Made by a program: the position numbers and the translations under genes. From a virus, in IMG/VR virus record IMGVR_UViG_3300045974_000563: a stretch of 37,520 bases of DNA, one strand, 5' to 3'. A model generated the notes under the pieces. The model worked only from the letters and a program-made list of their open reading frames with translations, was not told the origin of the DNA and ran no database searches. Of the stretch, positions 2,473 to 14,838 are shown one piece after another (position 1 is the first letter of the stretch; each line of letters opens with the position of its first letter).

Positions 2473-2500
2473 ATAAAAAACCGGCGCCCGAAGGCACCGG
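2473..2500 (-). terminator. Rho-independent terminator between cro-like and CII-like genes (tR1-like position)
   Basis: Minus strand reads ccggtgcc-ttcg-ggcgccgg followed by ttttttatt. Confidence 0.6.
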
Positions 2501-2578
2501 AAAAACGATCCACCAGGGAGACGACTTATGGACCGCAGAGAGAGACAGGATTCGAATCGGATTGCCAGGATGGTCATG

Positions 2579-2977
2579 TCAAGACTTCCCGCGCCGATCA
2601 CCACCCTGACGCTGGTAGTAATCGGGGTCCGGCTTTTCCGGGGAGCGCCGTTCGTTAGACCGTTTTTCCGGAGATCCCGTGGCGACAGGCGGCACAATGC
2701 AGATAAAAGGACCGTTTTCGTCGCCGATGGGTTGGAGCGGAATCGCCGTCCTACCTGCAGCAAATCCAATCGGCAAACCATCCTGCACGTTTGGGTATAT
2801 ATCGGGCCTTATCTGATGCGGGGTTACCACCCAGCCAGTCTTTTCAGCAGCATCCAGAACGCGCTCAGCCGGCACGCCATCGCGCACCCATTTGCGAAAT
2901 GCTTCTCCGGAAACACCATTCGCACGGGCCGCCGCAGCCTTAGTCTTATAAAAAAGGAGTAGTGACATGGCGCACAT
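2579..2977 (-). CDS. Cro/YdaS-like HTH regulator. The probable start is the ATG at 2968
   Basis: N-terminus KTKAAAARANGVSGEAFRKWVRDGVPAERVLDAAEKTGWVVTPHQIRPDIYP resembles Cro/YdaS-type HTH proteins. It is divergent from the repressor gene. The long C-terminal tail is unverified. Confidence 0.55.
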   Translation of the reverse strand: MCAMSLLLFYKTKAAAARANGVSGEAFRKWVRDGVPAERVLDAAEKTGWVVTPHQIRPDIYPNVQDGLPIGFAAGRTAIPLQPIGDENGPFICIVPPVATGSPEKRSNERRSPEKPDPDYYQRQGGDRRGKS

Positions 2978-3521
2978 TATTGCAACCGATAGTTGCCATA
3001 GTCAACAACTGATTCGTGCAGCGATTATGAATATTGTGCAACCCATGGTTGCAAATACTAAAAAAGACTTCGCGGACCGCCTGAATTTATCCTGCGATAA
3101 CGCGAAACCGCCCGTCATTTCCGGCCGGGGTAGGCGTGCAGAACTAAAACGTCGGGTGTATGCGTGCGGATTGACCGTATCCGGAGAATCCGTTCGTAAA
3201 TGGCTCAGCGACGAATCAATACCATCGATGGATAACGTGCGATTTATCGCTATCGCATTGGGCGTGGAAGCAGACTGGCTACTTACGGGCCGGGCGGTAC
3301 CGGATCACCGCCAGGCGGATTACGATGTAAAATCTGCAGCGCAAGTCCTAGAACTCAATGAGCCAGCAGCATCACCATTCTTAAGCGCCCGTCAAAGACA
3401 TATCCAGGAGATCGTTGAACTTCTAAGCACTATCAACGATTATGGTGTGGTAATCGTGCGCGATAAAGCGAAGGACATGTCCCTTGAATTTCCCGTTGAT
3501 CTATCGCAAACGGGATCGTGA
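2967..3521 (+). CDS. CI-like XRE-family repressor without an S24 peptidase domain. The true start is probably ATG 3027 or 3045
   Basis: HTH segment LTVSGESVRKWLSDESIPSMDNVRFIAIALGVEADWLLTG. Divergent from the cro-like gene. The first 60-80 nt of the track ORF overlap the cro start and the operators. I see no Ser/Lys autocleavage motif. Confidence 0.6.
   Translation: MAHIIATDSCHSQQLIRAAIMNIVQPMVANTKKDFADRLNLSCDNAKPPVISGRGRRAELKRRVYACGLTVSGESVRKWLSDESIPSMDNVRFIAIALGVEADWLLTGRAVPDHRQADYDVKSAAQVLELNEPAASPFLSARQRHIQEIVELLSTINDYGVVIVRDKAKDMSLEFPVDLSQTGS
2976..3005 (-). promoter_or_regulatory. Leftward early promoter: TTGACT (3005..3000) - N18 - TGcAATAAT (-10 at 2981..2976)
   Basis: Hexamers read on the minus strand. 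The same GTTGTTGACT -35 context is duplicated at 4394..4403. The predicted start site falls near the ATG at 2968. Confidence 0.45.
2981..3054. promoter_or_regulatory. Operator repeats TGCAACC-N3-RGTTGCM at 2981..2997 and 3037..3053 (perfect palindrome tgcaacc-cat-ggttgca), with a degenerate copy at 3004..3020
   Basis: 17-bp inverted repeats seen directly. Related copies occur at 4383..4399 and 4427..4443. Confidence 0.6.
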
Positions 3522-3612
3522 TCAATATTCGGGATTGGCGCAGACCAAATCTATAACCAATAGCCGATATCACTAAGGTAAAAAGTCACAGACGGCTTAT
3601 TCCGGCCGCCTA

Positions 3613-4329
3613 TCAAGGAAGCTGCCGAATCGCTTCAACTGCACTTTGCGCCATCATCGCCGCCATTTTAGGAATGACCTCCTGAATGGTCTTGTCGAGA
3701 TCTTCGACGCGAAGATAAACATCATCCGAATCTGCCCAGCGTTGGTCCGGCGTAGCAGCAATGGTCGTTTCCGAATCCTCATAATTGTCGCCAAAAACGA
3801 TGCGATCTGACGCGGTACAGTCGTTTTTCACGGCCGGCGTAACGATGCAATAAACAGCGTACACAGAAGGCTGGTAATACGATTTATTGTGATGCGAACG
3901 GACGCCAATACTCTCAAAATAGGTATAGATGACGGTCTTTCCATCCGGATTGATGGTCGACGATTGAATCGTTTCCGGTTTTGTCGGATCAACCCTGGCT
4001 CTCCGCTGATCGCCAAGCGCCACCCCAAGCGCTGATAATTCGGCGCGAAATTCAGCATGCAATTTTTGACTGTACTTTTGATCGCGCCGATACATCATCC
4101 CCGTCAGTCGGTCGCTCATTCCACTATTTCTAGACCTCGTGACGAATAGCGACAATGGCGCAGTCAGCACCGTGCCAATGACGTTGAAATCACTGCGCAT
4201 GGTGTAGGCAATTGGCTCAGGTCCATAGAGCGTATCGATCGGCGCATCGTTCTGCCTCTCTGCGAACGCCGCCGACGAGAGACATTCCGCAGCAATTAGT
4301 GCGAATGGCGCCGCAATCTTGAGTTTCAT
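3613..4329 (-). CDS. Secreted protein of unknown function (moron-like), with a signal peptide
   Basis: N-terminus MKLKIAAPFALIAAECLSSAAFA|ERQ has an AXA cleavage site. RBS aggggg precedes the ATG. The region is visibly more AT-rich than the rest and sits between the repressor gene and the rightward promoter. Confidence 0.6.
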   Translation of the reverse strand: MKLKIAAPFALIAAECLSSAAFAERQNDAPIDTLYGPEPIAYTMRSDFNVIGTVLTAPLSLFVTRSRNSGMSDRLTGMMYRRDQKYSQKLHAEFRAELSALGVALGDQRRARVDPTKPETIQSSTINPDGKTVIYTYFESIGVRSHHNKSYYQPSVYAVYCIVTPAVKNDCTASDRIVFGDNYEDSETTIAATPDQRWADSDDVYLRVEDLDKTIQEVIPKMAAMMAQSAVEAIRQLP

Positions 4330-4382
4330 TTAACCCCCTAAGTGATTCGATAAATTTTAATCGATTTACATACGTCTAAAAT

Positions 4383-4444
4383 AGCAACTATTGGTTGTTG
4401 ACTCCATGGAATTTCAGGTGATACAGTGCAACCATTAGTTGCCA
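4383..4444 (+). promoter_or_regulatory. Rightward early promoter: TTGACT (4398..4403) - N18 - TGaTACAGT (-10 at 4422..4427), flanked by operators at 4383..4399 and 4427..4443
   Basis: Hexamers and operator repeats read directly. Same architecture as the leftward promoter. Confidence 0.5.
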
Positions 4445-4601
4445 TTAACCAACCAGGAGCACCAAATTACCCTCACCCTCGCCGGCCTCAAAGTCCACCT
4501 CGCCCACTGCGCTTTGGACCACCGCCACGGCCGTAGCATCGGCCTGACCTTCACGGCCAGCGGCATCCCCGCCGTCCCGGTCCGCCACTGAGGCGAATGC
4601 C

Positions 4602-4874
4602 ATGCCCATTCGCCACTACCTAAAACTCAACGAATTGCAGCAGGACGAACTTAAAGGCCTGTTCAACCGCCTGCGTAAAACGCCCGGCGGCGAGCTGATG
4701 GCCCAGGTCTGGAAAGACGGGGCGGTCGTCAGCCTGATCGACGCGCGAATGGTCGACGCCATTCAGGCGGTGACCGGCCAAACAGGGACCAGCCGATCTG
4801 CCCTGGAAAACTTTAACCATCCCGCCGCACCGAATATCGCCAAGGCCTTTGCCGAAGAGGATCACACCCAATGA
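4602..4874 (+). CDS. Hypothetical protein (90 aa), first gene of the rightward operon
   Basis: ORF track. Its stop overlaps the start of the next gene. Confidence 0.5.
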   Translation: MPIRHYLKLNELQQDELKGLFNRLRKTPGGELMAQVWKDGAVVSLIDARMVDAIQAVTGQTGTSRSALENFNHPAAPNIAKAFAEEDHTQ

Positions 4875-5503
4875 CCACCGACAACACCCTAGCCAGCCTC
4901 AAACGCCGTCTCGAAAAAGCCGAACTGGTGCATCTGCGCAACCATGCCGGAGAACTGGCATCTCGCCTGGAACGCGCCGAAGAAGAATCAACATCTGCCT
5001 GGGCCGCCGCCGAAATGTGGCGTGAAGATCACCTGCAGCTCATGCAGGAATTGGCTGCTGATGGCCACGCTATCGGCCTGACCAAGGAAGGTACCGTCGG
5101 CCTGATGGCCGAAATAAAATCATCCGCCTGCGCCATCGGCGAACAATGGCCAGGCACCGACGCCATCTATGCCGGAATCTCGCTGTCAAGCGACAACGCC
5201 CGTGCCGTGCATCTGATCCTGTGGCCGGAAACCAATACCAAGCAACTCGATCACGCCGCCGCCATCGCAGTAGCGGAAGCCGTCAATCCGGAGCACGGAA
5301 GCCATATTCCAACCCGGATTCAGTCCGTGACCCTGTACGGCAATTTGAAGGATTGCTTCGACAAGTCGCCCTGGTACTGGACATCCACAAAACACGAGAA
5401 CGGCGAGTGGGCGTTCATCCAGTTCTTCAACAACGGCTACCCGGACCTCCACGACCTCTCTGCCGAGTGTCGGGTCCGTGCCGTCAGCGAGATTCCACTT
5501 TAG
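4871..5503 (+). CDS. DGR target protein 1 (type A): N-terminal coiled coil plus DUF1566/C-type-lectin-like C-terminus carrying VR1
   Basis: C-terminus WYWTSTKHENGEWAFIQFFNNGYPDLHDLSAECRVRAVSEIPL. The last ~80 nt match the TR except at TR adenines. Confidence 0.85.
   Translation: MTTDNTLASLKRRLEKAELVHLRNHAGELASRLERAEEESTSAWAAAEMWREDHLQLMQELAADGHAIGLTKEGTVGLMAEIKSSACAIGEQWPGTDAIYAGISLSSDNARAVHLILWPETNTKQLDHAAAIAVAEAVNPEHGSHIPTRIQSVTLYGNLKDCFDKSPWYWTSTKHENGEWAFIQFFNNGYPDLHDLSAECRVRAVSEIPL
5410..5488 (+). repeat. DGR variable repeat VR1
   Basis: Aligns without gaps to TR 10808..10886. There are 8 differences, all at TR adenines (aac->ttc, tac, gac, ctc, cac; cag->ccg). Confidence 0.9.
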
Positions 5504-5537
5504 TCCTTCAACCCTTCAATACTTAAGCCCTTTCGCC

Positions 5538-5744
5538 ATGCTCAATCCTTCTGCAACGACGCGAGCTGTAGTGCACGATTTTGAAGTCACCATGCATCGT
5601 AAGGCCTGCCTGAATGCCAATGAAGCCGCCCGAAAATGCATCGTGTTCGTGCGCGCCACCGACGTCGGAGAAGCCAAGAAAGCTGCAGATCGTCTGCCTC
5701 ATAAACGCGCTTTCATGGCCATGTCGGCAAGGCAAGTCAAATGA
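5538..5744 (+). CDS. Hypothetical protein (68 aa from ATG 5538)
   Basis: ORF track frame. The track start at 5478 is a GTG inside VR1, so the ATG at 5538 is preferred. Confidence 0.4.
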   Translation: MLNPSATTRAVVHDFEVTMHRKACLNANEAARKCIVFVRATDVGEAKKAADRLPHKRAFMAMSARQVK

Positions 5745-5908
5745 TCGCCGCCATTTTCTTTCCAGCCGATCCGGAAGCCTGTGTTTTCGATCTGGTCGAG
5801 CAGGCGCACCAGGCGCAGCGCGCCGGCCTGCGCCTCTATACCAACGGCATCCGCTTCGCCCTGCTGCCGCACCCGATCGCTGGATGGGCACTGTGGGGAA
5901 CGCGCTGA
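5741..5908 (+). CDS. Hypothetical small protein (55 aa; below the track cutoff)
   Basis: The ATG at 5741 overlaps the upstream stop as ATGA. The stop at 5906..5908 lies 2 nt before the next ATG. Confidence 0.35.
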   Translation: MIAAIFFPADPEACVFDLVEQAHQAQRAGLRLYTNGIRFALLPHPIAGWALWGTR

Positions 5909-5910
5909 TC

Positions 5911-6243
5911 ATGGCCCGCCATAGCAACCCTTTCGGCGCATTTGAGATCGATTCATTGCCCGGCCAAAGCCAGGTCGCTGTCTGCCATGCCTTCTTTGTT
6001 CCCGAAGACCTGCGCGGCCGGGGCTATGGCCATTGCCTGAAAGAACTGCAAGAGATCGAGCTGGATATCCAGCATTACGACCTGGCTATTTGCACGGTGG
6101 CCGCCGGCAACAGGCGTCAAAAGCGCGTACTCAAGCAGGCCGGCTGGCGCTATCTGATCGGCTTTCGTAATCGCCGCTCAGCGGAGACCACCGAACTGTG
6201 GTGCCGAGGTGGGCAGGCCGCGGAATCCTCATGCGACGCCTGA
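5911..6243 (+). CDS. Small GNAT-like acetyltransferase (110 aa)
   Basis: The motif VPEDLRGRGYGHCLKEL fits the R/Q-x-x-G-x-G/A acetyl-CoA loop, and KRVLKQAGWRYL is GNAT-like. The start is taken at ATG 5911 inside track ORF 5614..6243. Confidence 0.5.
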   Translation: MARHSNPFGAFEIDSLPGQSQVAVCHAFFVPEDLRGRGYGHCLKELQEIELDIQHYDLAICTVAAGNRRQKRVLKQAGWRYLIGFRNRRSAETTELWCRGGQAAESSCDA

Positions 6244-6329
6244 TCGAAACCGTCCTCATCTCGATAGCCATCATCGTCTGCGGCGACGTGGCCAGCGGCG
6301 GAAACCAGATTGAGGGCTACGGCGAATGA
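6231..6329 (+). CDS. Possible 32-aa membrane peptide
   Basis: Translates as MRRLIETVLISIAIIVCGDVASGGNQIEGYGE, with ATGA overlap to the next ORF. Very short, so uncertain. Confidence 0.25.
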   Translation: MRRLIETVLISIAIIVCGDVASGGNQIEGYGE

Positions 6330-8470
6330 TTACCGGACCCACCGTCATTACCGGACCCACCGTCTTACTCGAAGGAACCATCTCAATGAATGACCTGACC
6401 GACCTCAAGCACATCGAAGCGACTCAGCTCTGCCACAGCCAGGCGCTGCTGATTGCCGAGATCCACCCCAGCCCAACCAACCCGCGCAAGACCTTCCCCG
6501 AAGCCGATATGGCGGAGATGGTCGACAGTGTCAAGCGCCACGGTGTCATGCAAGCCATCCTAGTCCGCCCGTGGCCAGAGGCCTATGCCTTCGAGGGCGA
6601 GCGCCCGAAGTATGAACTGATTGCCGGCGAGCGCCGCTATCGCGCTGCTAAAACCGCCGGCCTGACCTACATCAGCGCCACCGTTCGCGATCTGGATGAT
6701 CATGAAACCCTCGAGCTGCAGATCGTCGAGAACCTGCACCGCAAAGACCTTAACGAGCTCGAAGAAGCCGAAGGCTACGAGATGATGGTCAAGCGCTATG
6801 GCTACACCGCCGAGCAGCTGGCTGAGAAGATCGACAAGAGCAAGGCCTACATCTACGCGCGCCTCAAGCTGACCGCCGCCGGCGAAGCAGCCCGTACTGC
6901 ATTTCGCGAAGGCCACCTTGATGCTTCTCGCCTTCTGTTGATCGCCCGGATTCCGACTGAAAGGCTACAAGAAGAAGCGTTGGCAGAAATCAACGACGAA
7001 GGCTATCGCGGGCCCATGAATTACCGCCAGGCGGCGAAATACATCCAGGAAAACTATATGCTGGATCTGGCCAAGGCACCTTTCTTGTCGTCCGACCCCG
7101 AGCTTATTCCCATGGCCGGCCAATGCGGAACCTGCCCCAAGCGAACCGGCAACAATCCAGATCTTTACCCAGAGGTGAAAAGTGCAGACATCTGCACCGA
7201 CACAGCCTGTTTTGCGGCCAAGAAAACCGCCCACTTCGTCCGCATCAAGGATGCTGCCAAGACGCAAGGTAGAACCGTAGTTGATGGTGAAGCCGCCGTA
7301 AAACTGCTACGCAACGGCGATTGGGATATCAAGGGCTTCGTCAAACTTGACGATAAATGCTACCAGGCAGGTTTCCGATCAGAAGGTGGATATCCCACCT
7401 ATCGCGAATTATTGGCTGATAAAGGCGTACCGGTCACGCTGATCGAGAAGCTGGACGGCACGCTGATCGAGACGGTCGAGGAGAAAGCCTTCACCGCTAT
7501 CGCCGCCGAAGTCGGCGCCAAGCCCAAGACAACGAGCAACAGCGGCGATAAGGAGCGCACCGCTAAGGAAAAAGCCGAAAACGAATTCCGCCAGCGCCTG
7601 TTTGATCAGGTCAGCCGCGCCTATCAGGAATCATTTGACGGGCAAGACCACCTGGATATCTTCAGCCTGCGTTTGATCGCTCGCCAGTTCTTTTCCTGTA
7701 CCTGGAACGAATACCAGAAAAAGCTGGCCACCCGCTGGCTACCCAGCGAAGAGAAAATCGACTCGCACGAGCGCATCCAGCAACTCACTCGGCTGATCGA
7801 TACCATGCCGTTGGCGCAGCTTAATCTGTTCATGATCGAACTGGCCCTGATCGGCATGTCGCACGTCGGTAGCTATGGCGCTACGGAAACTCCAGCCCCC
7901 TTCCTCGCTGCCGCTCAGCATATGCTCATCTCGCCAGACACGATTCGGCGCGAGATCAAGGCCGAACAGGATGCCAAGGCGGCTGGCAAGGGCAAGAAGG
8001 CGGCGAAGACCGCAAGCCCGGAGTTTGCCGAAGGCAGCTATGTCGAGATCATCGCCTACGATACCCAGAAGGATCTGATTGGTTCCTTTGGCCAGGTCAA
8101 AGCCGTCGGCCGCGCCATCGCTTCCGGAAAACCGATCTACACGCTGCTGCTCGCCGATGGCCTTTCCCTAGTTGCCGATTCAACCGAGCTAGCCAGCGCC
8201 ACACAGGCCGCTTTCGAGACCCAACAGGACGAACGCAATCCGGCGAATGCCGCCGCACAGGCCGGCGACGAACCCGCCGTGGTCCACAGCAAACGTGTTG
8301 TCACCCCCATCGCTTATCGCCACCCCGACAACGTCGGTCTGGCATGGACAGGCCGCGGCCGTCAGCCCAAATGGGTTGAGCACTGGCTGGCGCAGGACGG
8401 TAACACCCTGGAACAGCTTGCTGTTGGCCAGCCGCGCTGTGACAAGACGATTGACATCCCCGGGCTGTAA
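6326..8470 (+). CDS. ParB/Srx N-terminal domain protein with a Cys-rich ribbon and an H-NS-like C-terminal DNA-binding domain
   Basis: YELIAGERRYRAAKTAGL...IVENLHRKDLNELEEAEGY is the ParB box. Cys cluster: CGTCPKRTG...ICTDTAC. C-terminus AYRHPDNVGLAWTGRGRQPKWVEHWLAQDGNTLEQL carries the H-NS TWTGRGRxPxW motif. An alternative start is ATG 6386. Confidence 0.7.
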   Translation: MITGPTVITGPTVLLEGTISMNDLTDLKHIEATQLCHSQALLIAEIHPSPTNPRKTFPEADMAEMVDSVKRHGVMQAILVRPWPEAYAFEGERPKYELIAGERRYRAAKTAGLTYISATVRDLDDHETLELQIVENLHRKDLNELEEAEGYEMMVKRYGYTAEQLAEKIDKSKAYIYARLKLTAAGEAARTAFREGHLDASRLLLIARIPTERLQEEALAEINDEGYRGPMNYRQAAKYIQENYMLDLAKAPFLSSDPELIPMAGQCGTCPKRTGNNPDLYPEVKSADICTDTACFAAKKTAHFVRIKDAAKTQGRTVVDGEAAVKLLRNGDWDIKGFVKLDDKCYQAGFRSEGGYPTYRELLADKGVPVTLIEKLDGTLIETVEEKAFTAIAAEVGAKPKTTSNSGDKERTAKEKAENEFRQRLFDQVSRAYQESFDGQDHLDIFSLRLIARQFFSCTWNEYQKKLATRWLPSEEKIDSHERIQQLTRLIDTMPLAQLNLFMIELALIGMSHVGSYGATETPAPFLAAAQHMLISPDTIRREIKAEQDAKAAGKGKKAAKTASPEFAEGSYVEIIAYDTQKDLIGSFGQVKAVGRAIASGKPIYTLLLADGLSLVADSTELASATQAAFETQQDERNPANAAAQAGDEPAVVHSKRVVTPIAYRHPDNVGLAWTGRGRQPKWVEHWLAQDGNTLEQLAVGQPRCDKTIDIPGL
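6329..6364 (+). repeat. Perfect 18-bp tandem duplication attaccggacccaccgtc x2
   Basis: Read directly. It encodes ITGPTV ITGPTV if the ParB-like ORF starts at 6326. Confidence 0.9.
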
Positions 8471-8495
8471 TTCATCCACAACGAAAGGAAGATTC

Positions 8496-9092
8496 ATGCA
8501 ACAAACGCAAACCCCGCAAATCGGCACTGCCTTCGAAGGCGGTTTCTTTGGCGGCGTCATCAACGTCAATGGCCATCACAAGGGCGTCATCTGGGCCCCG
8601 AAAAAACCCGGCAGCTTTCCTGCCGTTCTGTTGGATGAAGACAAAATCGTCACCGATGCCGGCAGCCCGTTCGACTGCCTTAACAATACTCTGGCGCTGC
8701 TCTCCGCCGGCAGCCATGCCGCCAAGTATGTAACGGGTCTGAAGATCAACGGCTTCCAGGACTGGCTGATTCCATCGCGCGACGTGCTCGAGCTCGGTTA
8801 TCGCCACTTCAAGCCGACCACGGACACGAACTGGTGTAGCTGGCGCGACGGCGAGAACCACAACAGCGTTCCACCAGGCTGGCTCTACACCCGTCAACTG
8901 CCTAGCCAGACATCACTCGAAGCCTTCAAGGCCGGCGGCGATGAGGCCTTCGATGTCGTCTGGCATTGGTCATCAACCGTACATCCCGATGGCGACTCGG
9001 CGTTCATCCAGCACTTCTTCCTCGGCAGCCAGTGCGACAGCGCCCTCTCTGCCGAGTGTCGGGTCCGTGCCGTCAGGCTGATTCAACTTTGA
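8496..9092 (+). CDS. DGR target protein 2 (type B): DUF1566/C-type-lectin-like, carrying VR2
   Basis: ATG 8496 follows RBS aaaggaag. Motifs GGFFGG...DWLIPSRDVLEL...WHWSST...AFIQHFFLGSQCDSALSAECRVRAVRLIQL. The 3' end matches the TR. Confidence 0.85.
   Translation: MQQTQTPQIGTAFEGGFFGGVINVNGHHKGVIWAPKKPGSFPAVLLDEDKIVTDAGSPFDCLNNTLALLSAGSHAAKYVTGLKINGFQDWLIPSRDVLELGYRHFKPTTDTNWCSWRDGENHNSVPPGWLYTRQLPSQTSLEAFKAGGDEAFDVVWHWSSTVHPDGDSAFIQHFFLGSQCDSALSAECRVRAVRLIQL
8996..9076 (+). repeat. DGR variable repeat VR2
   Basis: Ungapped alignment to TR 10805..10885. There are 11-13 differences, all at TR adenines. Confidence 0.9.
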
Positions 9093-9127
9093 TCCTTGAA
9101 TCCTTCAATACTTATCAGGAACTCATC

Positions 9128-9721
9128 ATGCAGCCCACCAATTTCACTATCGGCGCCGCCCTTGAGGGCGGATTTTTCGGCGGAATTATCAACGTCTCCG
9201 GTCAACAAAAAGGCGTCATCTGGGCGCCGAAGCAGGAAGGCCAGATCAAGGCTCGCCTGATGCCGCAAGGTCGCCGCATCCTGTCGGCCCATAGCCCGAA
9301 TGACTGCCTGACCAATACGCAGCAATTGCTTGGTGTCGGCAGCCCAGCCGCTCAGCGCATCGCCGAAATGAACATCAATGGCTTCGCCGACTGGCTCATT
9401 CCGTCCCGCGACGTGCTCGAACTCGGCTATCGCCATTTCAAGCCGACCACCTACAAAAACTATTGCAGCTGGCGCGATGGCGAGAACCTCAACAGCGTTC
9501 CACCAGGCTGGCTCTACACCCCGGAACATCCGGCGCAGACGGCACTGGTTGATTTCCAGATAGATGGCACCGAAGCCTTCGACGATTACTACTACTGGAC
9601 CTCGACCGTCCTGCCGACTGGCGAAACGGCGTTCTTCCAGACCTTCCTCAACGGCGTCCAGGGCGACAGCGTCCTCTCTGCCGAGTGTCGGGTCCGTGCC
9701 GTCAGGCTGATTCAACTTTAA
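9128..9721 (+). CDS. DGR target protein 3 (type B, tandem paralog of target 2), carrying VR3
   Basis: MQPTNFTIGAALEGGFFGGIINV...DWLIPSRDVLELGYRHFKPT...YYWTST...AFFQTFLNGVQGDSVLSAECRVRAVRLIQL. Confidence 0.85.
   Translation: MQPTNFTIGAALEGGFFGGIINVSGQQKGVIWAPKQEGQIKARLMPQGRRILSAHSPNDCLTNTQQLLGVGSPAAQRIAEMNINGFADWLIPSRDVLELGYRHFKPTTYKNYCSWRDGENLNSVPPGWLYTPEHPAQTALVDFQIDGTEAFDDYYYWTSTVLPTGETAFFQTFLNGVQGDSVLSAECRVRAVRLIQL
9625..9705 (+). repeat. DGR variable repeat VR3
   Basis: Ungapped alignment to TR 10805..10885. There are 11 differences, all at TR adenines, including atc->ttc. Confidence 0.9.
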
Positions 9722-9757
9722 CCCTTGAATCCTTCAATCCTTCATCGGAAAACCACC

Positions 9758-10240
9758 ATGAAACTGCATATCGAGAATCTCAATATCACCGTGTCTCACC
9801 CTCAGCAGCCTGCAGGGCTGCTCGCGACGCTGGCCTTTGCCAACGCCGTATCCAGCACGCCAGCACCAGCGATCGGCGAGAAATGGCCGGGCACCGAAGC
9901 CACCTATGCCGGCATCGCGCTTTCCAGCGCCGGCGACAGCCTCGTCCATCTGCTGCTCTGGGATGAGTCGAACGATATCGCCCTGCCCTACGCCAAAGCT
10001 GTTGCCTACGCCGAAACGGTAAATCGCGACATGAACAGCCACCTCCCGACGCGCCATCAAAGCATCACGCTCTTCGAGAACCTGCAGGCCAGCTTCAACC
10101 AGGACTACTACCACTGGACGCTGACCAAAACCAAGAGCGGTAAATCGGCGTTCATCCAGTTCTTCACCTACGGCTACCAGTACACCTGCGACCTCTCTGC
10201 CGAGTGTCGGGTCCGTGCCGTCAGCGAGATTCCACTTTAA
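9758..10240 (+). CDS. DGR target protein 4 (type A paralog of target 1), carrying VR4
   Basis: ATG at 9758 (the track start 9725 is a TTG). IGEKWPGTEATYAGIALSS... parallels target 1. C-terminus AFIQFFTYGYQYTCDLSAECRVRAVSEIPL. Confidence 0.85.
   Translation: MKLHIENLNITVSHPQQPAGLLATLAFANAVSSTPAPAIGEKWPGTEATYAGIALSSAGDSLVHLLLWDESNDIALPYAKAVAYAETVNRDMNSHLPTRHQSITLFENLQASFNQDYYHWTLTKTKSGKSAFIQFFTYGYQYTCDLSAECRVRAVSEIPL
10144..10225 (+). repeat. DGR variable repeat VR4
   Basis: Ungapped alignment to TR 10805..10886. There are 9-10 differences, all at TR adenines. Confidence 0.9.
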
Positions 10241-10280
10241 TCCTTTAACCCTTTAGTCCTTTAGTCCTTTAGTCCTTCAA
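10241..10280 (+). repeat. Five tandem octamers (tcctttaa ccctttag tcctttag tcctttag tccttcaa), starting at the first base after the target-4 stop
   Basis: Read directly. Shorter arrays of the same octamer follow the stops of targets 1-3 (5504..5519, 9093..9108, 9722..9745). Confidence 0.9.
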
Positions 10281-10282
10281 CC

Positions 10283-10660
10283 ATGCTTCATACCAACCTG
10301 CCGATTTACAAGAAGGGTTACGACTTGTTAACCCTTGCCGCCGATGTTCAGCTGAACATGCCCCGCACGTTCAAGCAAAGCCTCGGCAAGCGCGTTTCAG
10401 ACGAATGCGTCGATCTGCTCCTCGAAATCGGCTACGCCAATGCCAGCCGAGGCGAAGCACGCTGCGAGCACATCCGCAGCGTGCTTCGCGGGCTGGAAGT
10501 GGTCTCACTGATGATGCGAGTCAGTTTCGACAAGGGCTTTATCTCGCGAAAGATATGGGCCTGCAGCATCGAAATGACCAGCACCATTGGCGGCCAGGCA
10601 GGCGGATGGCTGAAGAAGTCAGCACCCGCGTCTGATTCACAGGGGTCAAGGCTCCTATGA
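10283..10660 (+). CDS. avd: DGR accessory variability determinant (Avd-like four-helix-bundle protein)
   Basis: 125-aa basic helical ORF directly upstream of the TR and RT. N-terminus LPIYKKGYDLLTLAADVQLNMPRTFKQSLGKRV is typical of Avd. Its stop overlaps the RT ORF ATG (ATGA). Confidence 0.8.
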   Translation: MLHTNLPIYKKGYDLLTLAADVQLNMPRTFKQSLGKRVSDECVDLLLEIGYANASRGEARCEHIRSVLRGLEVVSLMMRVSFDKGFISRKIWACSIEMTSTIGGQAGGWLKKSAPASDSQGSRLL

Positions 10661-11988
10661 CCGTGCGCTTTATGAATCTGGTCGCACCCCTGCCCCACAA
10701 GGGCACGGACATGCACACCACGGATACCGCAGATCTCTTCTCTGGCTGGTCCGGTGCAGTTTCCCCGCTGAACAGTCAGCAGGGCGACGTCGATAGTGCG
10801 AACGAACGGCGTTCATCCAGAACTTCAACAACGGCAACCAGAACAACAACGACCTCTCTGCCGAGTGTCGGGTCCGTGCCGTCAGCAGATTCATCCCACT
10901 ACACCTTCGAGTTGTTGCTGCGTGCGTATCTGGATTGTCGCAAGCACAAGCGCAACTCGAAGAGTGCCCTGGCCTTCGAGCAGGATCTCGAACGCAACCT
11001 GTGGCAGCTGCACCTGGAACTGAGCGACGGTTCCTACTCCCCCGGAAAATCGATCTGCTTCGTCATCACGCGCCCGAAACCGCGCGAAGTATGGGCTGCC
11101 GATTTCCGCGATCGCATCGTGCATCACCTGTTGCACAACCAGGTTGGCCCCCGCTTCTACGCCCGCTTCATTGCCGACTCCTGCGCTTGCATTGCCGGCC
11201 GTGGCACACTGTACGCAGCTGAACGACTCGAGGCCAAAGTCCGCAGCATTACGCAAAACTGGCGGCGCCCGGCCTACTACCTCAAGTGTGACCTGGCCAA
11301 TTTCTTTGTCGCGATCGACAAGCACATTGTGCAGGCACTGTTCGCCAAGCACATCAACGAACCATGGTGGCTGGCGCTGGCAGAAACCATCCTGTTTCAC
11401 GATCCGCGCCAGAACTTTGAATACCAGGGCAACCCGGCTTTACTGGAACGCGTTCCGCCGCATAAGCGCCTGAGCAGCCAACCGGCCCACCTTGGGCTGC
11501 CGATCGGCAATCTGTGGTCGCAGTTCTCCGCCAACGTTCTGCTCAATGTGCTTGACCAGTTCGTCAAGCACGAGCTGCATTGCCGGCACTACATCCGCTA
11601 CGTCGATGATTTCATCCTTCTACACGAGTCGGCACAGTGGCTCAATGCCGCCAAGGCCCGGATCGAGCAGCTGCTTGCCAAACAACTGGCAATGCATCTC
11701 AACCCCAGCAAAACCATCCTGCAGCCCATCAAGCGCGGCATTGATTTCGTCGGCCAGGTCACTAAGCCCCATCGCCGCACTCTGCGCCGCAAAACCTTCA
11801 AAGACGCCATCCGGCGACTCGAATCCATCGACGCCACCGATGTTTTTCAGACGGCCAACAGCTATTTTGGCCTTCTTCGTCAGACCACCCACAGCCATCA
11901 AGACCGGGCCATTCTCAGCAACACCCTTCGCCATCGCGGCCACAGCATCAAGGCCGATCTCACCAAGACCTATCGGAGAACCGCATGA
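10657..11988 (+). CDS. DGR reverse transcriptase (true start uncertain; the TR lies within the 5' part of the long ORF)
   Basis: RT motifs FRDRIVHHLL, GLPIGNLWSQFSANVLLNVLD (DGR-type IGNLTSQ-like) and YVDDFILL. Follows avd and the TR. Confidence 0.9.
   Translation: MTVRFMNLVAPLPHKGTDMHTTDTADLFSGWSGAVSPLNSQQGDVDSANERRSSRTSTTATRTTTTSLPSVGSVPSADSSHYTFELLLRAYLDCRKHKRNSKSALAFEQDLERNLWQLHLELSDGSYSPGKSICFVITRPKPREVWAADFRDRIVHHLLHNQVGPRFYARFIADSCACIAGRGTLYAAERLEAKVRSITQNWRRPAYYLKCDLANFFVAIDKHIVQALFAKHINEPWWLALAETILFHDPRQNFEYQGNPALLERVPPHKRLSSQPAHLGLPIGNLWSQFSANVLLNVLDQFVKHELHCRHYIRYVDDFILLHESAQWLNAAKARIEQLLAKQLAMHLNPSKTILQPIKRGIDFVGQVTKPHRRTLRRKTFKDAIRRLESIDATDVFQTANSYFGLLRQTTHSHQDRAILSNTLRHRGHSIKADLTKTYRRTA
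10805..10886 (+). repeat. DGR template repeat (TR), rich in AAC codons in the VR reading frame
   Basis: aacggcgttcatccag AAC ttc AAC AAC ggc AAC cag AAC AAC AAC gac ctctctgccgagtgtcgggtccgtgccgtcagc. It carries A wherever the four VRs differ. Confidence 0.9.
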
Positions 11989-12827
11989 CCATTCCGCTTT
12001 GCATTTACCACCACGCCTGCGCAGATGGCGTTGCCGCTGCCTGGGCGGTGCGCGAGCACTATCGCCTCAAAGGCAGCGATGTTGAATTCTTTCCCGGCAT
12101 CTACGACGAGGCGCCGCCCGACGTCACTGGACGCGATGTGATCATGGTCGATTTCAGTTACAAGCGCCCAGTCTTGCTGCAGATGGCCGAGCAAGCCAAT
12201 AGTCTGCTCGTCATCGACCATCATAAAACCGCTATGCAAGATATTATCGATCTTCCTTTTTCGATCGATCTGGAATTTTCCCTTAACCATTCGGGCGCAA
12301 TGCTTGCATGGAACCGCTTTCACCCAGGCCAAGATGCACCGCTGCTCTTCGATCATATCCAGGACCATGACCTCTGGCGCTTCGCGCTTAGCCATACCCG
12401 TGAGATCACCGCCGCCGTCTATTCCCACCCGATCACACCAACGAACTTCGGCGACCTAATCAACGCCGGTATCCGGTCGCTGATCGCCGAAGGGATTTCC
12501 CTGTTGCGCAAGCAGCGTCATGACATCGATGCCATTATCCGCGATGCAGTTCGCCAGATGCGCTTTGGCGAGACGCTGGTCCCCGCCGCCAACGTACCCT
12601 GGATGTACGCCAGCGACGTCGCCGGGATCCTGGCCGAAGGCCAACCCTTTGCCGTCACCTATTACGACGATGCCAAGGGCCGGCGCTTTTCCTTGCGTTC
12701 CACCCCGGACGGTGCAGACGTCTCCACGATCGCCGAGGCCTTCGGCGGCGGCGGTCATGAACATGCGGCCGGATTTCGCATGACGCGGGAAGAAGCGATC
12801 GATTTCGAAGTGGCGGGAGGGGTGTGA
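11985..12827 (+). CDS. DHH/DHHA1 family phosphoesterase
   Basis: Motifs HHACADG, IMVDFS, VIDHHKT, QDHDLW and GGGGHEHAAGF. The ATG overlaps the RT stop (ATGA), with ggagaa as the RBS. Confidence 0.75.
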   Translation: MTIPLCIYHHACADGVAAAWAVREHYRLKGSDVEFFPGIYDEAPPDVTGRDVIMVDFSYKRPVLLQMAEQANSLLVIDHHKTAMQDIIDLPFSIDLEFSLNHSGAMLAWNRFHPGQDAPLLFDHIQDHDLWRFALSHTREITAAVYSHPITPTNFGDLINAGIRSLIAEGISLLRKQRHDIDAIIRDAVRQMRFGETLVPAANVPWMYASDVAGILAEGQPFAVTYYDDAKGRRFSLRSTPDGADVSTIAEAFGGGGHEHAAGFRMTREEAIDFEVAGGV

Positions 12828-13327
12828 TCGTGAGCCACACAAATATACCCTGGTCAACCAGAACCGGGCGCCATCTCGGTGAAACGCTCATCGTTGGGGA
12901 TAATGGCCGTCAGGTCATCGGATATTTTCAGCAGCCCAATATCGGGGGGTCACACGAAGACAATGCGCTACGAACCATCTCCTGCGTCAATGCCTGTGCT
13001 GGAATTCCCAACGACTATATCTCTAATGTTGTTTCCTTTGGCCTTCAAGGTCACAACAAAGTTTCAGACGATCTAATGGCAGCTCGAGATGCTTTGCTGC
13101 ACGAAGGCATGCAGCGCGATGACCTTCTGGCTGCACTTCACGCGATTGTTGCAGAACTTAACCAAGGATTGAACTGCTCGCAAACGACCATTCGTAAAAT
13201 AACTCAGGAAGCCATCGCCAGCGTGGAAGAATCGGCAGTTGTCAAGGATTCCTTGACAACTGAAATATCAATCCCCGCCCTCGTCTTCTACCCTGCCGGC
13301 AGCCTGGGCGAAGAGGTGCAGCCTTGA
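12824..13327 (+). CDS. Hypothetical protein (about 165 aa), more AT-rich than its neighbours
   Basis: ORF track. GTG start at 12824 or 12830 after gggagggg. Overlaps both neighbours. Confidence 0.5.
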   Translation: MIVSHTNIPWSTRTGRHLGETLIVGDNGRQVIGYFQQPNIGGSHEDNALRTISCVNACAGIPNDYISNVVSFGLQGHNKVSDDLMAARDALLHEGMQRDDLLAALHAIVAELNQGLNCSQTTIRKITQEAIASVEESAVVKDSLTTEISIPALVFYPAGSLGEEVQP

Positions 13328-13845
13328 CCTGGCTACTCACCGCCTCCGGCAAGCAGTTCGATCCCGTCGACCCGCAACCCGACATGATTGACTTGGTCGA
13401 TATCGCCAATGGCCTATCGAACGAATGCCGCTTTGCCGGCCAGTGTCGATACTTCTACAGCGTCGCCCAACACTCGGTACTGGTCAGCCAGAACGTACCC
13501 CGCGAAAACGCCTGGGAAGCTCTGCTGCATGATGCCGCGGAAGCCTATATCAAGGATATCCCGGCGCCGATCAAGCGACTGCTCCCAGACTACCGCGCCC
13601 TCGAGCACAAGATCGAGGCCGCGATCCGCGCCCGCTTTGGCCTGCCGGATAGCCAGACACCCATTGTCAAGCATGCCGATCTCGTTTTGCTCGCCACCGA
13701 GCGCCGTGACCTGATGCCGCAAGATGGCAGTTCCTGGCAGATGCTCAAGGGGATCACTCCGCTCGATAAGCGCATTCGGGCCGTGCATTCATCAGCCGCC
13801 AAATCCCTGTTCATGCAGCATGCTCTGGAGGTACTGCAGGCATGA
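13324..13845 (+). CDS. HD-domain phosphohydrolase (YfbR-like 5'-nucleotidase type)
   Basis: SVAQHSV...LLHDAAEAYIKDIPAPIK...HADLVLLATE match the HD metal-binding motifs. TTG start overlaps the upstream stop. Confidence 0.65.
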   Translation: MTWLLTASGKQFDPVDPQPDMIDLVDIANGLSNECRFAGQCRYFYSVAQHSVLVSQNVPRENAWEALLHDAAEAYIKDIPAPIKRLLPDYRALEHKIEAAIRARFGLPDSQTPIVKHADLVLLATERRDLMPQDGSSWQMLKGITPLDKRIRAVHSSAAKSLFMQHALEVLQA

Positions 13846-14507
13846 AGAATCGCCGCGTTCACTGGTCTGAGCCTTTGACCGAACTGCTCATCGAGACGTA
13901 TCCGCACATCCCGACCCAGTGGCTGGCCAGCGTTCTTAAAATCAGCATCCAGGCCGTTTACAACAAAGCCTTGTCACTGGGCCTGACCAAGACAGCCGAA
14001 TTTATGGCCAGCGAATTTGGCACTCGCCTTCGCCGGGGCGACCAGATTTGCGCTGCTACACGTTTTCGAAAAGGGCAGACCCCCTGGAACAAGGGGAAAC
14101 ATTACGTCGCCGGAGGCCGGTCAGCTGATACCCGATTTACGAAAGGTAATCAATCCGGCCGGGCCCGACAGCTTTATCAGCCGATCGGCAGCGAGCGCCT
14201 GAGCAAGGATGGCTATCTGCAGCGCAAGATCAATGACGACATGCCCCTGCAGAGACGCTGGCGCGGTGTCCACATCATCAACTGGGAAGCCATCAATGGC
14301 CCCCTCCCACATGGCCACGCTCTCATCTTCAAGGATGGCAACAAACAGAACACCGATCCGGAAAATCTGGAACTCGTCACTCGTGCCGAACTGATGCGCC
14401 GAAATTCATGCCATCGCTACGGCAAGGAAATCGCCCAACTCGTTCAGCTTCGCGGCGCCCTCACTCGTAAGATCAACAGCATCGAAAGGAAACAACATGG
14501 CCAATGA
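13842..14507 (+). CDS. HNH (HNH_3-type) homing-like endonuclease with N-terminal HTH
   Basis: VHIINWEAINGPLPHGHALIFKDGNKQNTDPENLELVTRAELMRRN. The ATG overlaps the HD gene stop. Confidence 0.65.
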   Translation: MKNRRVHWSEPLTELLIETYPHIPTQWLASVLKISIQAVYNKALSLGLTKTAEFMASEFGTRLRRGDQICAATRFRKGQTPWNKGKHYVAGGRSADTRFTKGNQSGRARQLYQPIGSERLSKDGYLQRKINDDMPLQRRWRGVHIINWEAINGPLPHGHALIFKDGNKQNTDPENLELVTRAELMRRNSCHRYGKEIAQLVQLRGALTRKINSIERKQHGQ

Positions 14508-14811
14508 CACCATCGAACTGCGCAACATCCTATTCGACACCCTGCGCGATCTCCGCGACAAGAAAGACCCGATGGATATCGAGCGCGCCAGGACGATTAG
14601 TCAGGTAGCGCAGACCGCAATCAGTTTGGCCAAAGTCGAGGTCGACCACATGAAGGTTACGGGAGCGCCATCGTCATCCGGCTTTCTGCCAGCACCGGCT
14701 ACGCCGACGGCAACCGGATCAAGCACTCAACAGGTTCCCGCATTGCCGAAAACACCCGGCGTTGCTGAACAGATCATGGCGGCCAATGTCACCCGCCATG
14801 AGTGCAAGTAA
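14497..14811 (+). CDS. Hypothetical protein (104 aa)
   Basis: ORF track. RBS aaaggaaac. Confidence 0.5.
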   Translation: MANDTIELRNILFDTLRDLRDKKDPMDIERARTISQVAQTAISLAKVEVDHMKVTGAPSSSGFLPAPATPTATGSSTQQVPALPKTPGVAEQIMAANVTRHECK

Positions 14812-14838
14812 CGCCATAGTTTAAAACCGGAACATTCC

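Follow-up and report, generated by a model that had tools for sequence, protein, structure and literature searches.

A functional-looking DGR with a single TR and four target genes in a temperate phage genome

Described DGRs and the locus analysed

The reference DGR, that of phage BPP-1, is organized as mtd-avd-TR-brt and has a single target, VR1 in mtd, which encodes a tail-fibre protein of the virion module. Its TR directly follows avd, between the TR and brt lies a spacer RNA (Rfam RF03022, about 140 nt), and a GC hairpin follows the VR. DGRs with several targets, and with non-adjacent ones, are known already from published surveys; a Treponema DGR has seven non-adjacent targets and a Stenotrophomonas DGR eight tandem ones (Wu et al., 2018; PMC5758913). 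According to the same survey, the targets of phage-associated DGRs lie within 50 kb, non-adjacent ones inside the same prophage, and phage-associated lineages tend to a single target. About half of the targets in its category 'd' (CLec2; DUF1566/DUF823/Fib_succ_major), which is exemplified by the Legionella LdtA DGR, are short DUF1566-only proteins. Concerning RNA motifs, RT-10 alone was assigned to a DGR, and other RT motifs were speculated to occur in DGRs as well (Weinberg et al., 2017; PMC5737381).

The DNA analysed here (IMG/VR record IMGVR_UViG_3300045974_000563, 37,520 nt, called the window) has a terminal overlap of 127 bp and 37,393 bp of unique sequence. It contains genes for TerL, portal, major head protein, tape measure, endolysin, holin and integrase, and is a complete temperate siphovirus-like phage genome of 37.4 kb. 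T2, T3, T4, avd, RT-15, TR and RT form an operon-like block on the + strand, and T1 is located on the same strand about 5.4 kb upstream of the TR:

4871..5503, + strand: T1, 210 aa (ORF and translation; weak Lcl_C match; found as a homolog of T4)
8496..9092, + strand: T2, 198 aa, DUF1566/Lcl_C type (Pfam Lcl_C 7e-4, under threshold; homologs with PF07603)
9128..9721, + strand: T3, 197 aa, tandem paralog of T2
9758..10240, + strand: T4, 160 aa, C-type-lectin-like fold predicted by an AF2 model
10283..10660, + strand: avd (accessory variability determinant), 125 aa (Pfam bAvd 3.5e-8; PHROG; NCBIfam)
10626..10808, + strand: RT-15 RNA motif (Rfam RF03018; full-length match, 160.4 bits against a gathering score of 82, E 9e-39)
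10657..11988, + strand: RT ORF, 443 aa from an ATG overlapping the avd stop (RVT_1 2.4e-10; PHROG RT 2.4e-109)

The Avd-like gene and the RT with the motifs IGNLWSQ and YVDDF named in the original prediction are present (avd 10283-10660, RT ORF 10657-11988, motifs at 11503-11523 and 11599-11613). Avd matches PHROG 'Avd protein of DGR' (7.6e-22) and NCBIfam DivGenRetAVD (4e-9) and was found in 115/115 relatives; Avd and Lcl_C matches fall under the curated Pfam and NCBIfam cut-offs. The RT length of 443 aa holds only if the ATG overlapping the avd stop is the start; the conserved part begins at about 10897, and start-codon analysis gave TTG 10912 and TTG 10915 as alternatives.

The window shares with BPP-1 an Avd combined with an RT (30% identity to Bordetella phage bRT, E 8e-39; IGxLxSQ and YxDD motifs), an AAC-rich TR, TR/VR differences at A only, VRs at the C-terminus of proteins with a C-type-lectin fold, and a shared GC-rich 3' segment after which IMH and IMH* diverge. 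In contrast to BPP-1, it has four small targets outside the virion module, RT-15 precedes the TR, the conserved RT starts about 10 nt after the TR, and tandem octamers instead of a GC hairpin follow the VRs. The TR lies within the open RT frame, in the +2 frame compared with the reading of the VRs, and the BPP-1 spacer RNA (Rfam Phage_DGR) is missing. By sequence, the locus is a canonical DGR: besides the repeats it has avd, an RT of the DGR type that is intact, and targets resembling C-type lectins.

Adenine-specific differences between the TR and four VRs

The gapless alignment of the TR to the 3' ends of four genes that had been proposed held for the following intervals:

10808-10885, + strand: TR, 78 nt (repeat alignment; some VRs are homologous out to 10805 and 10886)
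5410-5487, + strand: VR1, ungapped against the TR; 8 mismatches, each at a TR adenine; 0/58 at non-A positions
8999-9076, + strand: VR2, ungapped against the TR; 11 mismatches, each at a TR adenine; 0/58 at non-A positions
9628-9705, + strand: VR3, ungapped against the TR; 11 mismatches, each at a TR adenine; 0/58 at non-A positions
10147-10224, + strand: VR4, ungapped against the TR; 9 mismatches, each at a TR adenine; 0/58 at non-A positions

A 32-nt core, CTCTCTGCCGAGTGTCGGGTCCGTGCCGTCAG, is present in five exact copies, on the + strand only (ends 5487, 9076, 9705, 10224 and 10885), and exact-core scans of three collections gave no further copy. The TR contains 20 adenines and 58 non-A positions, and all core mismatches of the four VRs (39/39) fall on adenines, as predicted; the chance of this is 5e-8 to 1.5e-10 per VR. 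Non-A mismatches and indels were looked for and are absent from the 78-nt core. The predicted mismatch counts were reproduced as 8, 11, 11 and 9, their ranges of 11-13 and 9-10 stemming from adenines 10805-10806 at the ragged 5' edge, and the same variable adenines were recovered (seven AAC codons and the A of ATC, CAG and GAC). Adenines 10819, 10864 and 10884 are invariant across all four VRs. Non-A differences occur only outside the core, at 10807 (VR1) and 10886 (VR2, VR3), which are the homology boundaries of the repeats; the homology of VR3 to the TR reaches 5' as far as 9625. A repeat scan of the window, run all against all and without bias, returned these four TR/VR pairs as the only A-biased ones.

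Repeats of this kind could also be C-termini of paralogs that recombination or gene conversion has made alike, with a coincidental or selected A-bias, and the four genes do form two pairs of paralogs. However, the restriction of all mismatches to adenines, the location of an A-rich fifth copy, non-functional as a target C-terminus, between avd and a DGR-type RT, and the same A-biased pattern in about 150 relatives leave this explanation next to no probability; the non-A mismatches or indels that it needs are missing, and it is effectively refuted.

Compared with each other, the four VRs differ at 8-16 of the 20 adenine-templated positions and at 0/58 others. The 150-300 nt upstream of the VRs are only 51-72% identical between targets (about 70-72% for T2 and T3), whereas no non-A position differs among the VR cores, which suggests recent overwriting. 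Since the VRs differ from one another at adenine-templated positions only, the proposal that each was independently rewritten is supported.

Following the established DGR mechanism, the avd/RT-15/TR/RT transcript would be reverse-transcribed by an RT-Avd complex, random nucleotides would enter opposite the 17 variable adenines, allowing about 1e11 possible peptides per target, and the cDNA would then replace the homologous 78-nt VR in any of the four genes. All hallmarks of adenine-specific mutagenic retrohoming that sequence can show were found, and the four VRs qualify equally; the DGR is confirmed at the sequence level, and its interpretation as such a system is supported. We consider it very probable that a functional-looking DGR on a complete temperate phage serves four targets from a single TR, and we infer that it is presently active in this genome.

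Target proteins and turnover in the RT lineage

T1-T4, all encoded in the early/lysogeny block, are small proteins that resemble C-type lectins (DUF1566/Lcl_C type) and carry the VR at their very C-terminus. T1 (P0121) is a T4 paralog lengthened at its N-terminus by about 85 aa. The AF2 model of T2 (pLDDT 95.4) has 8q4e, the Lcl C-terminal domain, as its top PDB match. T4 has no Pfam match; its model (pLDDT 84.6, residues 1-32 of low confidence) also matches 8q4e best (E 1.3e-4), with many CTLDs next. Both target types are thus modelled as a C-type-lectin-like fold with the VR at the C-terminus. Category 'd' DGRs likewise carry the VR in a DUF1566/Lcl_C-type C-lectin variant, and the target models match the C-terminal domain of Legionella Lcl; by target type, T1-T4 are candidate CLec2 members. 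LdtA is a surface lipoprotein, whereas T1-T4 are products of phage early-region genes with no obvious N-terminal signal peptide as judged by eye.

In IMG/VR more than 400 stretches match the RT lineage, in bacterial genomes 345; the lineage is large and prophage-borne, and occurs in Betaproteobacteria and Pseudomonas. Among 107 relatives with full flanks, 4 loci have one VR, 61 two, 39 three and 3 four. All VRs (255/255) precede the TR and share its strand, 47/255 (18%) being more than 2.5 kb and 16/255 more than 5 kb away from it, with the same hallmarks. One TR with two or three targets is the rule in this lineage, different from the single target towards which the phage-associated lineages of Wu et al. 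tend, and targets several kb upstream are common. The layout had been called unusual; four targets, one of them about 5.4 kb away, are indeed present, but the rarity was overstated, because two to three targets are usual, four occur in 3/107 relatives and distant targets are common, making a multi-target layout normal for a large phage lineage. In the multi-target DGRs of Wu et al., too, several VRs share a single TR, and the 5' homology boundary varies per target. The four targets may have arisen by duplication of the usual pair of the lineage, one T2/T3-type and one T4-type gene.

It is unlikely that only the three cassette-adjacent VRs are live and that rewriting of the remote VR1 has ended. 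VR1 has the fewest substitutions (8), differs from VR4 at just 8 adenine positions and is distant from the TR, but it shows no non-A mismatch, a VR4-like IMH-like flank and a four-unit octamer array. In addition, VRs of relatives lie equally far away, and in published work DGRs serve non-adjacent targets in trans (PMC5758913).

Pseudomonas phages SC_8_H2H8_2017 (MT121966) and LPPA56 (OR188718) are among the closest sequenced relatives, as are IMG/VR contigs L004-L012 and prophages of Propionivibrio, Sulfuriferula, Gallionella, Paraburkholderia, Janthinobacterium and others. They share the cassette order (targets, avd, RT-15, TR, RT), target families and octamer arrays with the window, and their RTs are 62-77% identical to its RT. 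Unlike the window, most have two to three VRs, and their TR measures 100-110 nt; about 80 nt is the TR length in the window and in L004, L005, L008 and L012, the relatives nearest to it. In the isolate records the DGRs appear unannotated, as 'hypothetical protein' or featureless sequence.

Between related non-identical phages, adenine-templated VR positions differ by 45%, flanks by 11.8%, non-A VR positions by 4.9% and TRs by about 1%; for L008 and L086, differences were found at 22/39 VR adenine positions, 75/2540 flank positions and 1/81 TR positions. This rapid VR turnover with ultra-conserved TRs speaks against a recently inactivated relic whose VRs were rewritten earlier. For such a relic one can cite that the same three contigs carry each of T1, T2, T4, RT and integrase as exact proteins, with no VR variation among them, that the 90% clusters of these proteins contain no variants, and that the Avd scores are under curated thresholds. 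However, the three contigs may be one population assembled three times, the catalytic and DGR-specific RT motifs are intact, RT-15 is full-length at 160 bits, and TR and VRs are identical at 58/58 non-A positions, which decay would erode; we regard inactivation as improbable.

Octamer arrays and a possible RNA pairing beside the repeats

Each VR in the window is followed by an IMH-like element, with a flank common to VR1 and VR4, and by four to six tandem AT-rich octamers (NCCTTNAN):

5496..5527, + strand: octamer array 1, CACTTTAG TCCTTCAA CCCTTCAA TACTTAAG; overlaps the T1 stop codon
9085..9116, + strand: octamer array 2, AACTTTGA TCCTTGAA TCCTTCAA TACTTATC
9714..9745, + strand: octamer array 3, AACTTTAA CCCTTGAA TCCTTCAA TCCTTCAT
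10233..10280, + strand: octamer array 4, six units, CACTTTAA TCCTTTAA CCCTTTAG TCCTTTAG TCCTTTAG TCCTTCAA; the longest of 299 unique VR ends

On both strands of the 37.5 kb the octamer pattern has 11 matches, none of them away from the four VR ends, against a background of 0.005 per 50 nt; in the lineage, where three to six octamers follow the VRs, the pattern is present at 233/255 VR ends versus 0/107 TR ends. No GC-rich inverted repeat was found after any VR. The VR (recipient) would be told apart from the TR (donor) by the bases that directly follow their common GC-rich core on the 3' side, and the IMH-like element together with the octamers may mark the VR. Alternatively, and with a lower though appreciable probability, the arrays are expression signals of the target or next gene, which could act in translational coupling, termination or RNA stability, or passive AT-rich unwinding elements. 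They overlap the stop codon of the target and stop just short of the next start codon, TAA or TAG occurs in many units, and they are 73% A+T compared with 37% in the preceding VR; a homing role is read from sequence. On the other hand, the octamers are confined to VR ends, the remote VR1 carries an array despite a different downstream gene, and the arrays take the place of the BPP-1 IMH 21-bp element and cruciform, both absent here.

RT-15 starts in the 3' end of avd and reaches the first TR bases, abutting the TR on its 5' side, and has the same position in 6/6 relatives tested. An unpaired segment of it is complementary to the TR 3' flank:

10672..10680, + strand: unpaired RT-15 segment, ATGAATCTG, complementary to 10886-10894
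10886..10894, + strand: TR 3' flank, IMH*-like, CAGATTCAT, exact reverse complement of 10672-10680

Pairing of CAGATTCAT with this segment may position the start of cDNA synthesis. The proposed helix shows covariation among relatives, uncorrected for relatedness of the loci; it is reduced to a 4-bp core in 47/107 unique loci, and one slid register scores equally. These lineage-wide DNA and RNA signals beside the repeats are apparently undescribed, and no paper naming RT-15 or RF03018 was found in the literature searched. We consider three features seen across the lineage, the octamers, RT-15 beside the TR with its possible pairing, and the TR in the RT frame, more interesting than the number of targets. 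The match to RF03018 (Weinberg et al., 2017) is full-length and far above the gathering score, and it pins RT-15 between avd and TR, going beyond the published placement (PMC5737381).

Repeats, avd and RT

The 32-nt core CTCTCTGCCGAGTGTCGGGTCCGTGCCGTCAG occurs in exactly five copies in the window, on the + strand only, and the copy at 10854-10885 belongs to the template repeat (TR). The TR was aligned without gaps to four variable repeats (VR1 to VR4) at the 3' ends of the target genes T1 to T4, confirming the arrangement of one TR and four gapless VRs, and the positions, given by the original prediction.

Template and variable repeats
10808-10885, + strand: TR, 78 nt, gapless alignment to the four VRs
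5410-5487, + strand: VR1, 8 mismatches to the TR
8999-9076, + strand: VR2, 11 mismatches to the TR
9628-9705, + strand: VR3, 11 mismatches to the TR
10147-10224, + strand: VR4, 9 mismatches to the TR

All mismatches fall among the 20 adenines of the TR and none at its 58 non-A positions in any VR, as had been predicted; the 78-nt alignments contain no indels. The probability that all mismatches lie on adenines by chance is P = 5e-8 to 1.5e-10 per VR. Mismatch counts of 8, 11-13, 11 and 9-10 had been given before; the 78-nt repeats give 8, 11, 11 and 9, and the upper ends of the ranges go back to adenines 10805-10806, where the homology frays differently for each target. The sole non-adenine differences are found at the boundaries of the homology, at 10807 (VR1) and 10886 (VR2 and VR3). 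In the frame of the targets the TR reads TAFIQNFNNGNQNNNDLSAECRVRAVS, and the variable adenines are located in the codons named before, seven AAC plus ATC, CAG and GAC. No possible adenine substitution generates a stop codon, about 1e11 peptides are reachable per target, and the VRs stop 16 nt short of the target stop codons. An all-against-all scan of the window for adenine-biased repeat pairs returned these four pairs and nothing else.

Compared with each other, the VRs differ at 8-16 of the 20 adenine positions, and all 58 non-adenine positions are identical, including in the TR. Identity in the 150-300 nt upstream of the VRs is 70-72% for T2/T3, 57-59% for T1/T4 and ~51-53% between the two types. 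Perfect identity that is broken solely at adenine positions, within genes this diverged, can only be explained by repeated overwriting from the TR; since the VRs are mutually different at so many of these positions, they were not copied from one another. The proposal that each VR was rewritten independently is thus supported.

An Avd-like gene and an RT with the motifs IGNLWSQ and YVDDF had been reported beside the TR, and both assignments were substantiated.

Protein-coding genes at the TR
10283-10660, + strand: avd, PHROG "Avd protein of DGR" (7.6e-22)
10657-11988, + strand: RT open reading frame, RVT_1 (2.4e-10)

Over its full length, Avd scores below threshold with Pfam bAvd (34.3 bits against a cut-off of 40) and with NCBIfam DivGenRetAVD (36.7 bits against 80), and the gene is kept in 115/115 relatives. 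The RT is 30% identical to the Bordetella phage bRT (E 8e-39), with IGNLWSQ aligned to IGSLTSQ and YVDD to YMDD, so that the combination of YxDD and (I/L)GxxxSQ beside a TR that characterizes DGR-clade RTs is present. NCBIfam, which has no DGR-specific model, gave weak group II, retron and Drt matches only. Compared to the bRT of BPP-1, the Bordetella phage reference DGR (mtd-avd-TR-brt), the RT carries an insertion of ~22 aa upstream of IGxLxSQ (WWLALAETILFHDPRQNFEYQGNP, window ~11340-11410). Taken together, the element was correctly identified as a DGR that has a single TR and four genuine VRs. A DHH/DHHA1 phosphoesterase gene (11985-12827) follows, its start overlapping the RT stop codon (ATGA); it was considered as a conserved DGR partner and rejected, being present in only 5/120 loci.

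Target genes and phage genome

The four targets belong to two types, each represented by two paralogs.

Target genes
4871-5503, + strand: T1, closed by VR1, paralog of T4 with ~85 extra N-terminal residues
8496-9092, + strand: T2, closed by VR2, tandem paralog of T3
9128-9721, + strand: T3, closed by VR3, tandem paralog of T2
9758-10240, + strand: T4, closed by VR4, second target type, paralog of T1

Pfam PF07603 (Lcl_C/DUF1566, gathering threshold 34.9 bits) is not reached by any of them (T1 16.8, T2 20.3 and T3 22.3 bits; T4 no match). Many homologs of T2 at 48-70% identity carry a precomputed PF07603 match, and the structure models of T2 (pLDDT 95.4) and T4 (pLDDT 84.6, residues 1-32 with low confidence) both have as their top PDB match 8q4e, the solved C-terminal domain of Legionella Lcl. 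The T proteins are therefore divergent Lcl_C members by fold and not by sequence threshold. For T4, 8q4e is followed by dozens of C-type lectin-like domains, and in a viral structure library its matches are phage DUF1566 proteins, including C-terminal domains of tail fibres and receptor-binding proteins. According to the models, the VRs are located in a C-type-lectin-fold domain at the C-terminus; DGR targets carry them in ligand-binding domains of this or the Ig fold, usually C-terminally. Inspection by eye revealed no obvious N-terminal signal peptide in T1-T4. The N-terminus of the T4 type, MKLHIENL...PAGL(L/I)A.LA (T4 residues 1-32, 9758-9853), is strongly conserved among homologs and modelled by AF2 with low confidence; it may serve in docking or localisation.

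The window ends are identical over 127 bp (1-127 = 37394-37520), and the window is 100% identical to the JGI metagenome contig Ga0485829_0000610 (38,831 bp), showing that the genome is complete and was assembled as a circle, with 37,393 unique bp. Genes for the large terminase, portal, major head protein, a 1580-aa tape measure, holin and endolysin occupy the minus-strand half. On the plus strand, the block with the DGR also contains regulators, a ParB/H-NS fusion, the DHH phosphoesterase, a dNMP phosphatase, an HNH endonuclease and an integrase. The window is a temperate tailed phage. T1-T4 are placed among the early and lysogeny genes, away from the tail genes, which raises the question of what a temperate phage gains from hypervarying up to four lectin-like proteins. 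The fusion protein (714 aa, 6326-8470), encoded between T1 and T2-T4, has ParB N-terminal and HTH domains and a C-terminal H-NS DNA-binding domain; a homolog is found upstream of the TR in 22/115 relatives.

Sequence elements at the repeat ends

The 3' ends of the repeats share the GC-rich GGGTCCGTGCCGTCAG, followed by CGAGATTCCACTTTA in VR1 and VR4, GCTGATTCAACTTT in VR2 and VR3 and CAGATTCATCCCACT in the TR, which is consistent with an IMH at the VRs and a non-identical IMH* at the TR, the elements found at these ends in DGRs. A GC-rich inverted repeat (cruciform) is present downstream of the IMH in 34% of DGRs and is not universal (Wu et al., 2018, PMC5758913). DNA folding detected no such GC-rich cruciform downstream of the VRs (z 0.48 for VR1, 0.34 for VR4); in the flanks of VR2 and VR3, an AT-rich hairpin of 7 bp is all that forms (z -1.2 and -2.8). 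At the position of the cruciform, ~3 nt beyond the end of the TR/VR homology, each VR is instead followed by a tandem array of AT-rich 8-nt units.

Octamer arrays
5496-5527: after VR1, 4 units of the form NCCTTNAN
9085-9116: after VR2, 4 units of the form NCCTTNAN
9714-9745: after VR3, 4 units of the form NCCTTNAN
10233-10280: after VR4, 6 units of the form NCCTTNAN, the longest array seen

The pattern [AC]TT-N5-[AC]TT-N5-[AC]TT occurs 11 times on both strands of the window, always at the four VR ends. Among loci of relatives sharing the RT lineage, it is present at 233 of 255 VR ends and at none of 107 TR ends, against a background of ~0.005 per 50 nt, and at least three in-register units are present at 272/299 unique VR ends. 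Relatives mostly show the form NNATTNAN with 3-6 units. The arrays have an A+T content of 73%, compared to 37% in the preceding VR, and the target stop codon usually lies within the second unit. BPP-1 has a GC hairpin without octamer periodicity, whereas the window has octamers without a GC hairpin; in some relatives a GC hairpin comes after the octamer array. Promoter and terminator scans of window 2500-17000 gave nothing above shuffled expectation.

A second element was identified at the 5' side of the TR.

RNA motif at the TR
10626-10808, + strand: RT-15 (Rfam RF03018), 160.4 bits (gathering score 82), model positions 1-192 of 192

RT-15 reaches from the 3' end of avd just into the TR and has the same placement in 6/6 relatives tested. 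RT-10 was the only motif attributed to a DGR by Weinberg et al. (2017, PMC5737381), who speculated about a DGR link of other RT motifs; RT-15, an orphan "RT-associated" motif, is now placed inside a DGR at the 5' edge of the TR. In BPP-1, the spacer RF03022 lies 3' of the TR, recruits RT-Avd and primes cDNA, whereas in the window RF03022 is absent and RT-15 lies 5' of the TR. An unpaired segment of RT-15, ATGAATCTG (10672-10680), is the exact reverse complement, over 9 nt, of CAGATTCAT (10886-10894), which directly follows the TR. Across loci, mean helix length is 5.08 for matched and 4.45 for permuted segments (0/2000 permutations reach the observed value; kinship uncontrolled). When the 4-nt core is used to fix the register, 90% of unique loci have a pair at the second extension position, with the Watson-Crick types TA 31, GC 12, CG 7 and AT 3 (again with kinship uncontrolled), and compensatory changes are found across the lineage, for example TTGATCT/AGATCAA and TTTCAATCT/AGATTGGAA. 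Other observations speak against the helix: A.C is frequent at the first extension position, one slid register reaches an equal score, and 47/107 unique loci have the core helix of 4 bp only. Handa et al. (bioRxiv 10.1101/2023.10.23.563531) described two duplexes, one of template and primer at the 3' end of the BPP-1 TR and, in most DGRs, a "cPRT Stop" duplex that joins sequences on either side of the TR; the helix between RT-15 and the TR flank may correspond to one of the two. Complementarity between the octamers and the RT-15 hairpin loop (UCAAGG/CCTTGA) was also considered and dropped, since the loop is conserved where the octamers of relatives differ.

The TR itself sits within the open RT frame (window 10657-10926). 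The ATG at 10657, a candidate RT start beside TTG codons at 10912 and 10915, overlaps the avd stop, and conserved RT sequence begins ~10 nt past the TR end. In a set of 75 loci the RT frame is open across the entire TR in 73, an in-frame ATG upstream of the TR is present in 69, and 35 lack any start codon in the interval from the TR to the conserved N-terminus of the RT. Stops within 150 nt upstream of the TR were found in the RT frame of 6/75 loci, compared to 73/75 and 70/75 in the other frames. A conserved N-terminal peptide encoded by the RT-15 region was rejected: codon-position entropies are 0.66, 0.69 and 0.80 versus 0.55, 0.44 and 1.26 in the RT domain. The frame of this region stays open although its substitution pattern is not of the coding type. 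Judged from these patterns, ribosomes probably read through RT-15 and the TR, with the peptide sequence itself unconstrained.

The way in which the cDNA of a DGR locates and replaces the VR has been described as not yet fully understood (PLoS Genet 2026, PMC12875486). Our tentative proposal, to which as a whole we give somewhat less than even credence, is that recipient VRs are marked by a new kind of signal, the octamer arrays, and not by IMH plus cruciform as in BPP-1, and that a 5' RT-15 located in the RT frame pairs with the TR 3' flank. The recipient signal would consist of three to six tandem AT-rich octamers ~3 nt past the end of the TR/VR homology; on the donor RNA, the single-stranded RT-15 segment would pair with the TR 3' flank and thereby define the start or stop of cDNA synthesis. 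If this is true, number and placement of the arrays would let one TR serve two to four genes, and an array added to any gene with a TR-homologous end would recruit a new target. With ~270 independent octamer-marked VR ends, no marked TR, and the placement of RT-15, the lineage offers mutable elements for testing target discrimination and cDNA initiation beyond BPP-1.

Turnover and distribution in the lineage

VR turnover was determined in related, non-identical pairs whose RTs share 88-98% nucleotide identity; with a cut-off of 97% the comparison was uninformative, all 29 pairs being exact duplicates across two collections.

Difference rates in related pairs
VR positions templated by TR adenines: 45%
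Flanking DNA: 11.8%
VR non-adenine positions: 4.9%
TR: about 1%

The closest pair (L008/L086) differs at 22/39 VR adenine positions, 75/2540 flank positions and 1/81 TR positions. These rates are what would be expected as the footprint of ongoing mutagenic homing with a protected template. Exact T1, T2, T4, RT and integrase proteins were found on the same three contigs, where the consensus VRs are identical; the 90% clusters of these proteins contain no variants, VR variants of T1, T2 and T4 included, and the exact core had no match elsewhere in three public collections (viral, genome and metagenome). The DGR of the window's phage is probably active at present.

In IMG/VR, 421 stretches matched the RT, and 345 relatives were confirmed among species-representative genomes, mostly of Rhodocyclaceae, Gallionellaceae, Burkholderiales and Pseudomonas. 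Isolated relatives include the Pseudomonas phages SC_8_H2H8_2017 and LPPA56, with two, apparently unannotated, VRs each. VRs were counted at the 107 loci whose upstream flank is complete over 10 kb.

VRs per TR (n = 107)
1 VR: 4 loci
2 VRs: 61 loci
3 VRs: 39 loci
4 VRs: 3 loci (L027, L123, L160)

The usual set is one T2/T3-type and one T4-type gene, both of which are duplicated in the window. Wu et al. (2018, PMC5758913) reported several targets in ~15% of DGRs, up to eight, as well as non-adjacent targets inside prophages and short DUF1566-only targets. Given this range and the lineage counts, four targets represent the upper tail of a known distribution and no new kind. Of the two features originally called unusual, four targets per TR is mildly so (3/107 loci) within a multi-target layout already known, and a target ~5.3 kb from the cassette is not, with 47 of the 255 VRs at >2.5 kb and 16 at >5 kb. 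Without exception, the 255 VRs lie upstream of the TR and share its strand. In a reconstituted system, the efficiency of editing was found to vary with how the target is oriented with respect to replication (2026, PMC12875486), and the strict co-orientation may be related to this effect. With the window, a prophage DGR lineage of Betaproteobacteria and Pseudomonas that is very common and for the most part unannotated gains one complete genome; the more novel material is lineage-wide, namely the octamer arrays, the placement of RT-15 with its pairing to the TR flank, and the TR within the RT frame. A literature library, incomplete and hence no proof of novelty, contained no description of RT-15 or RF03018 and none of tandem or direct repeats at VR ends.

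Single relatives showed further features. Locus L044 contains a second biased repeat pair (13526-13629 / 14047-14150) ~6 kb downstream of its DGR, with 11/11 mismatches at T of one copy, which may be an oppositely oriented second TR/VR pair. In one Burkholderiaceae MAG, a single contig (CBIHRA010000002.1) carries two DGR-element copies (L118 and L119; 107-128 kb and 169-190 kb) that are identical over >17 kb and ~60 kb apart. The closest relative in the genome collection (L085, NZ_JBOFQE010000083.1, 38,072 bp, RT 77%) was binned into a "Pseudomonas sp." MAG; a contig of this length points to a complete phage genome, and the assignment to this host may therefore reflect a binning artefact. Propionivibrio, other Rhodocyclaceae and Sulfuriferula also contain close relatives.
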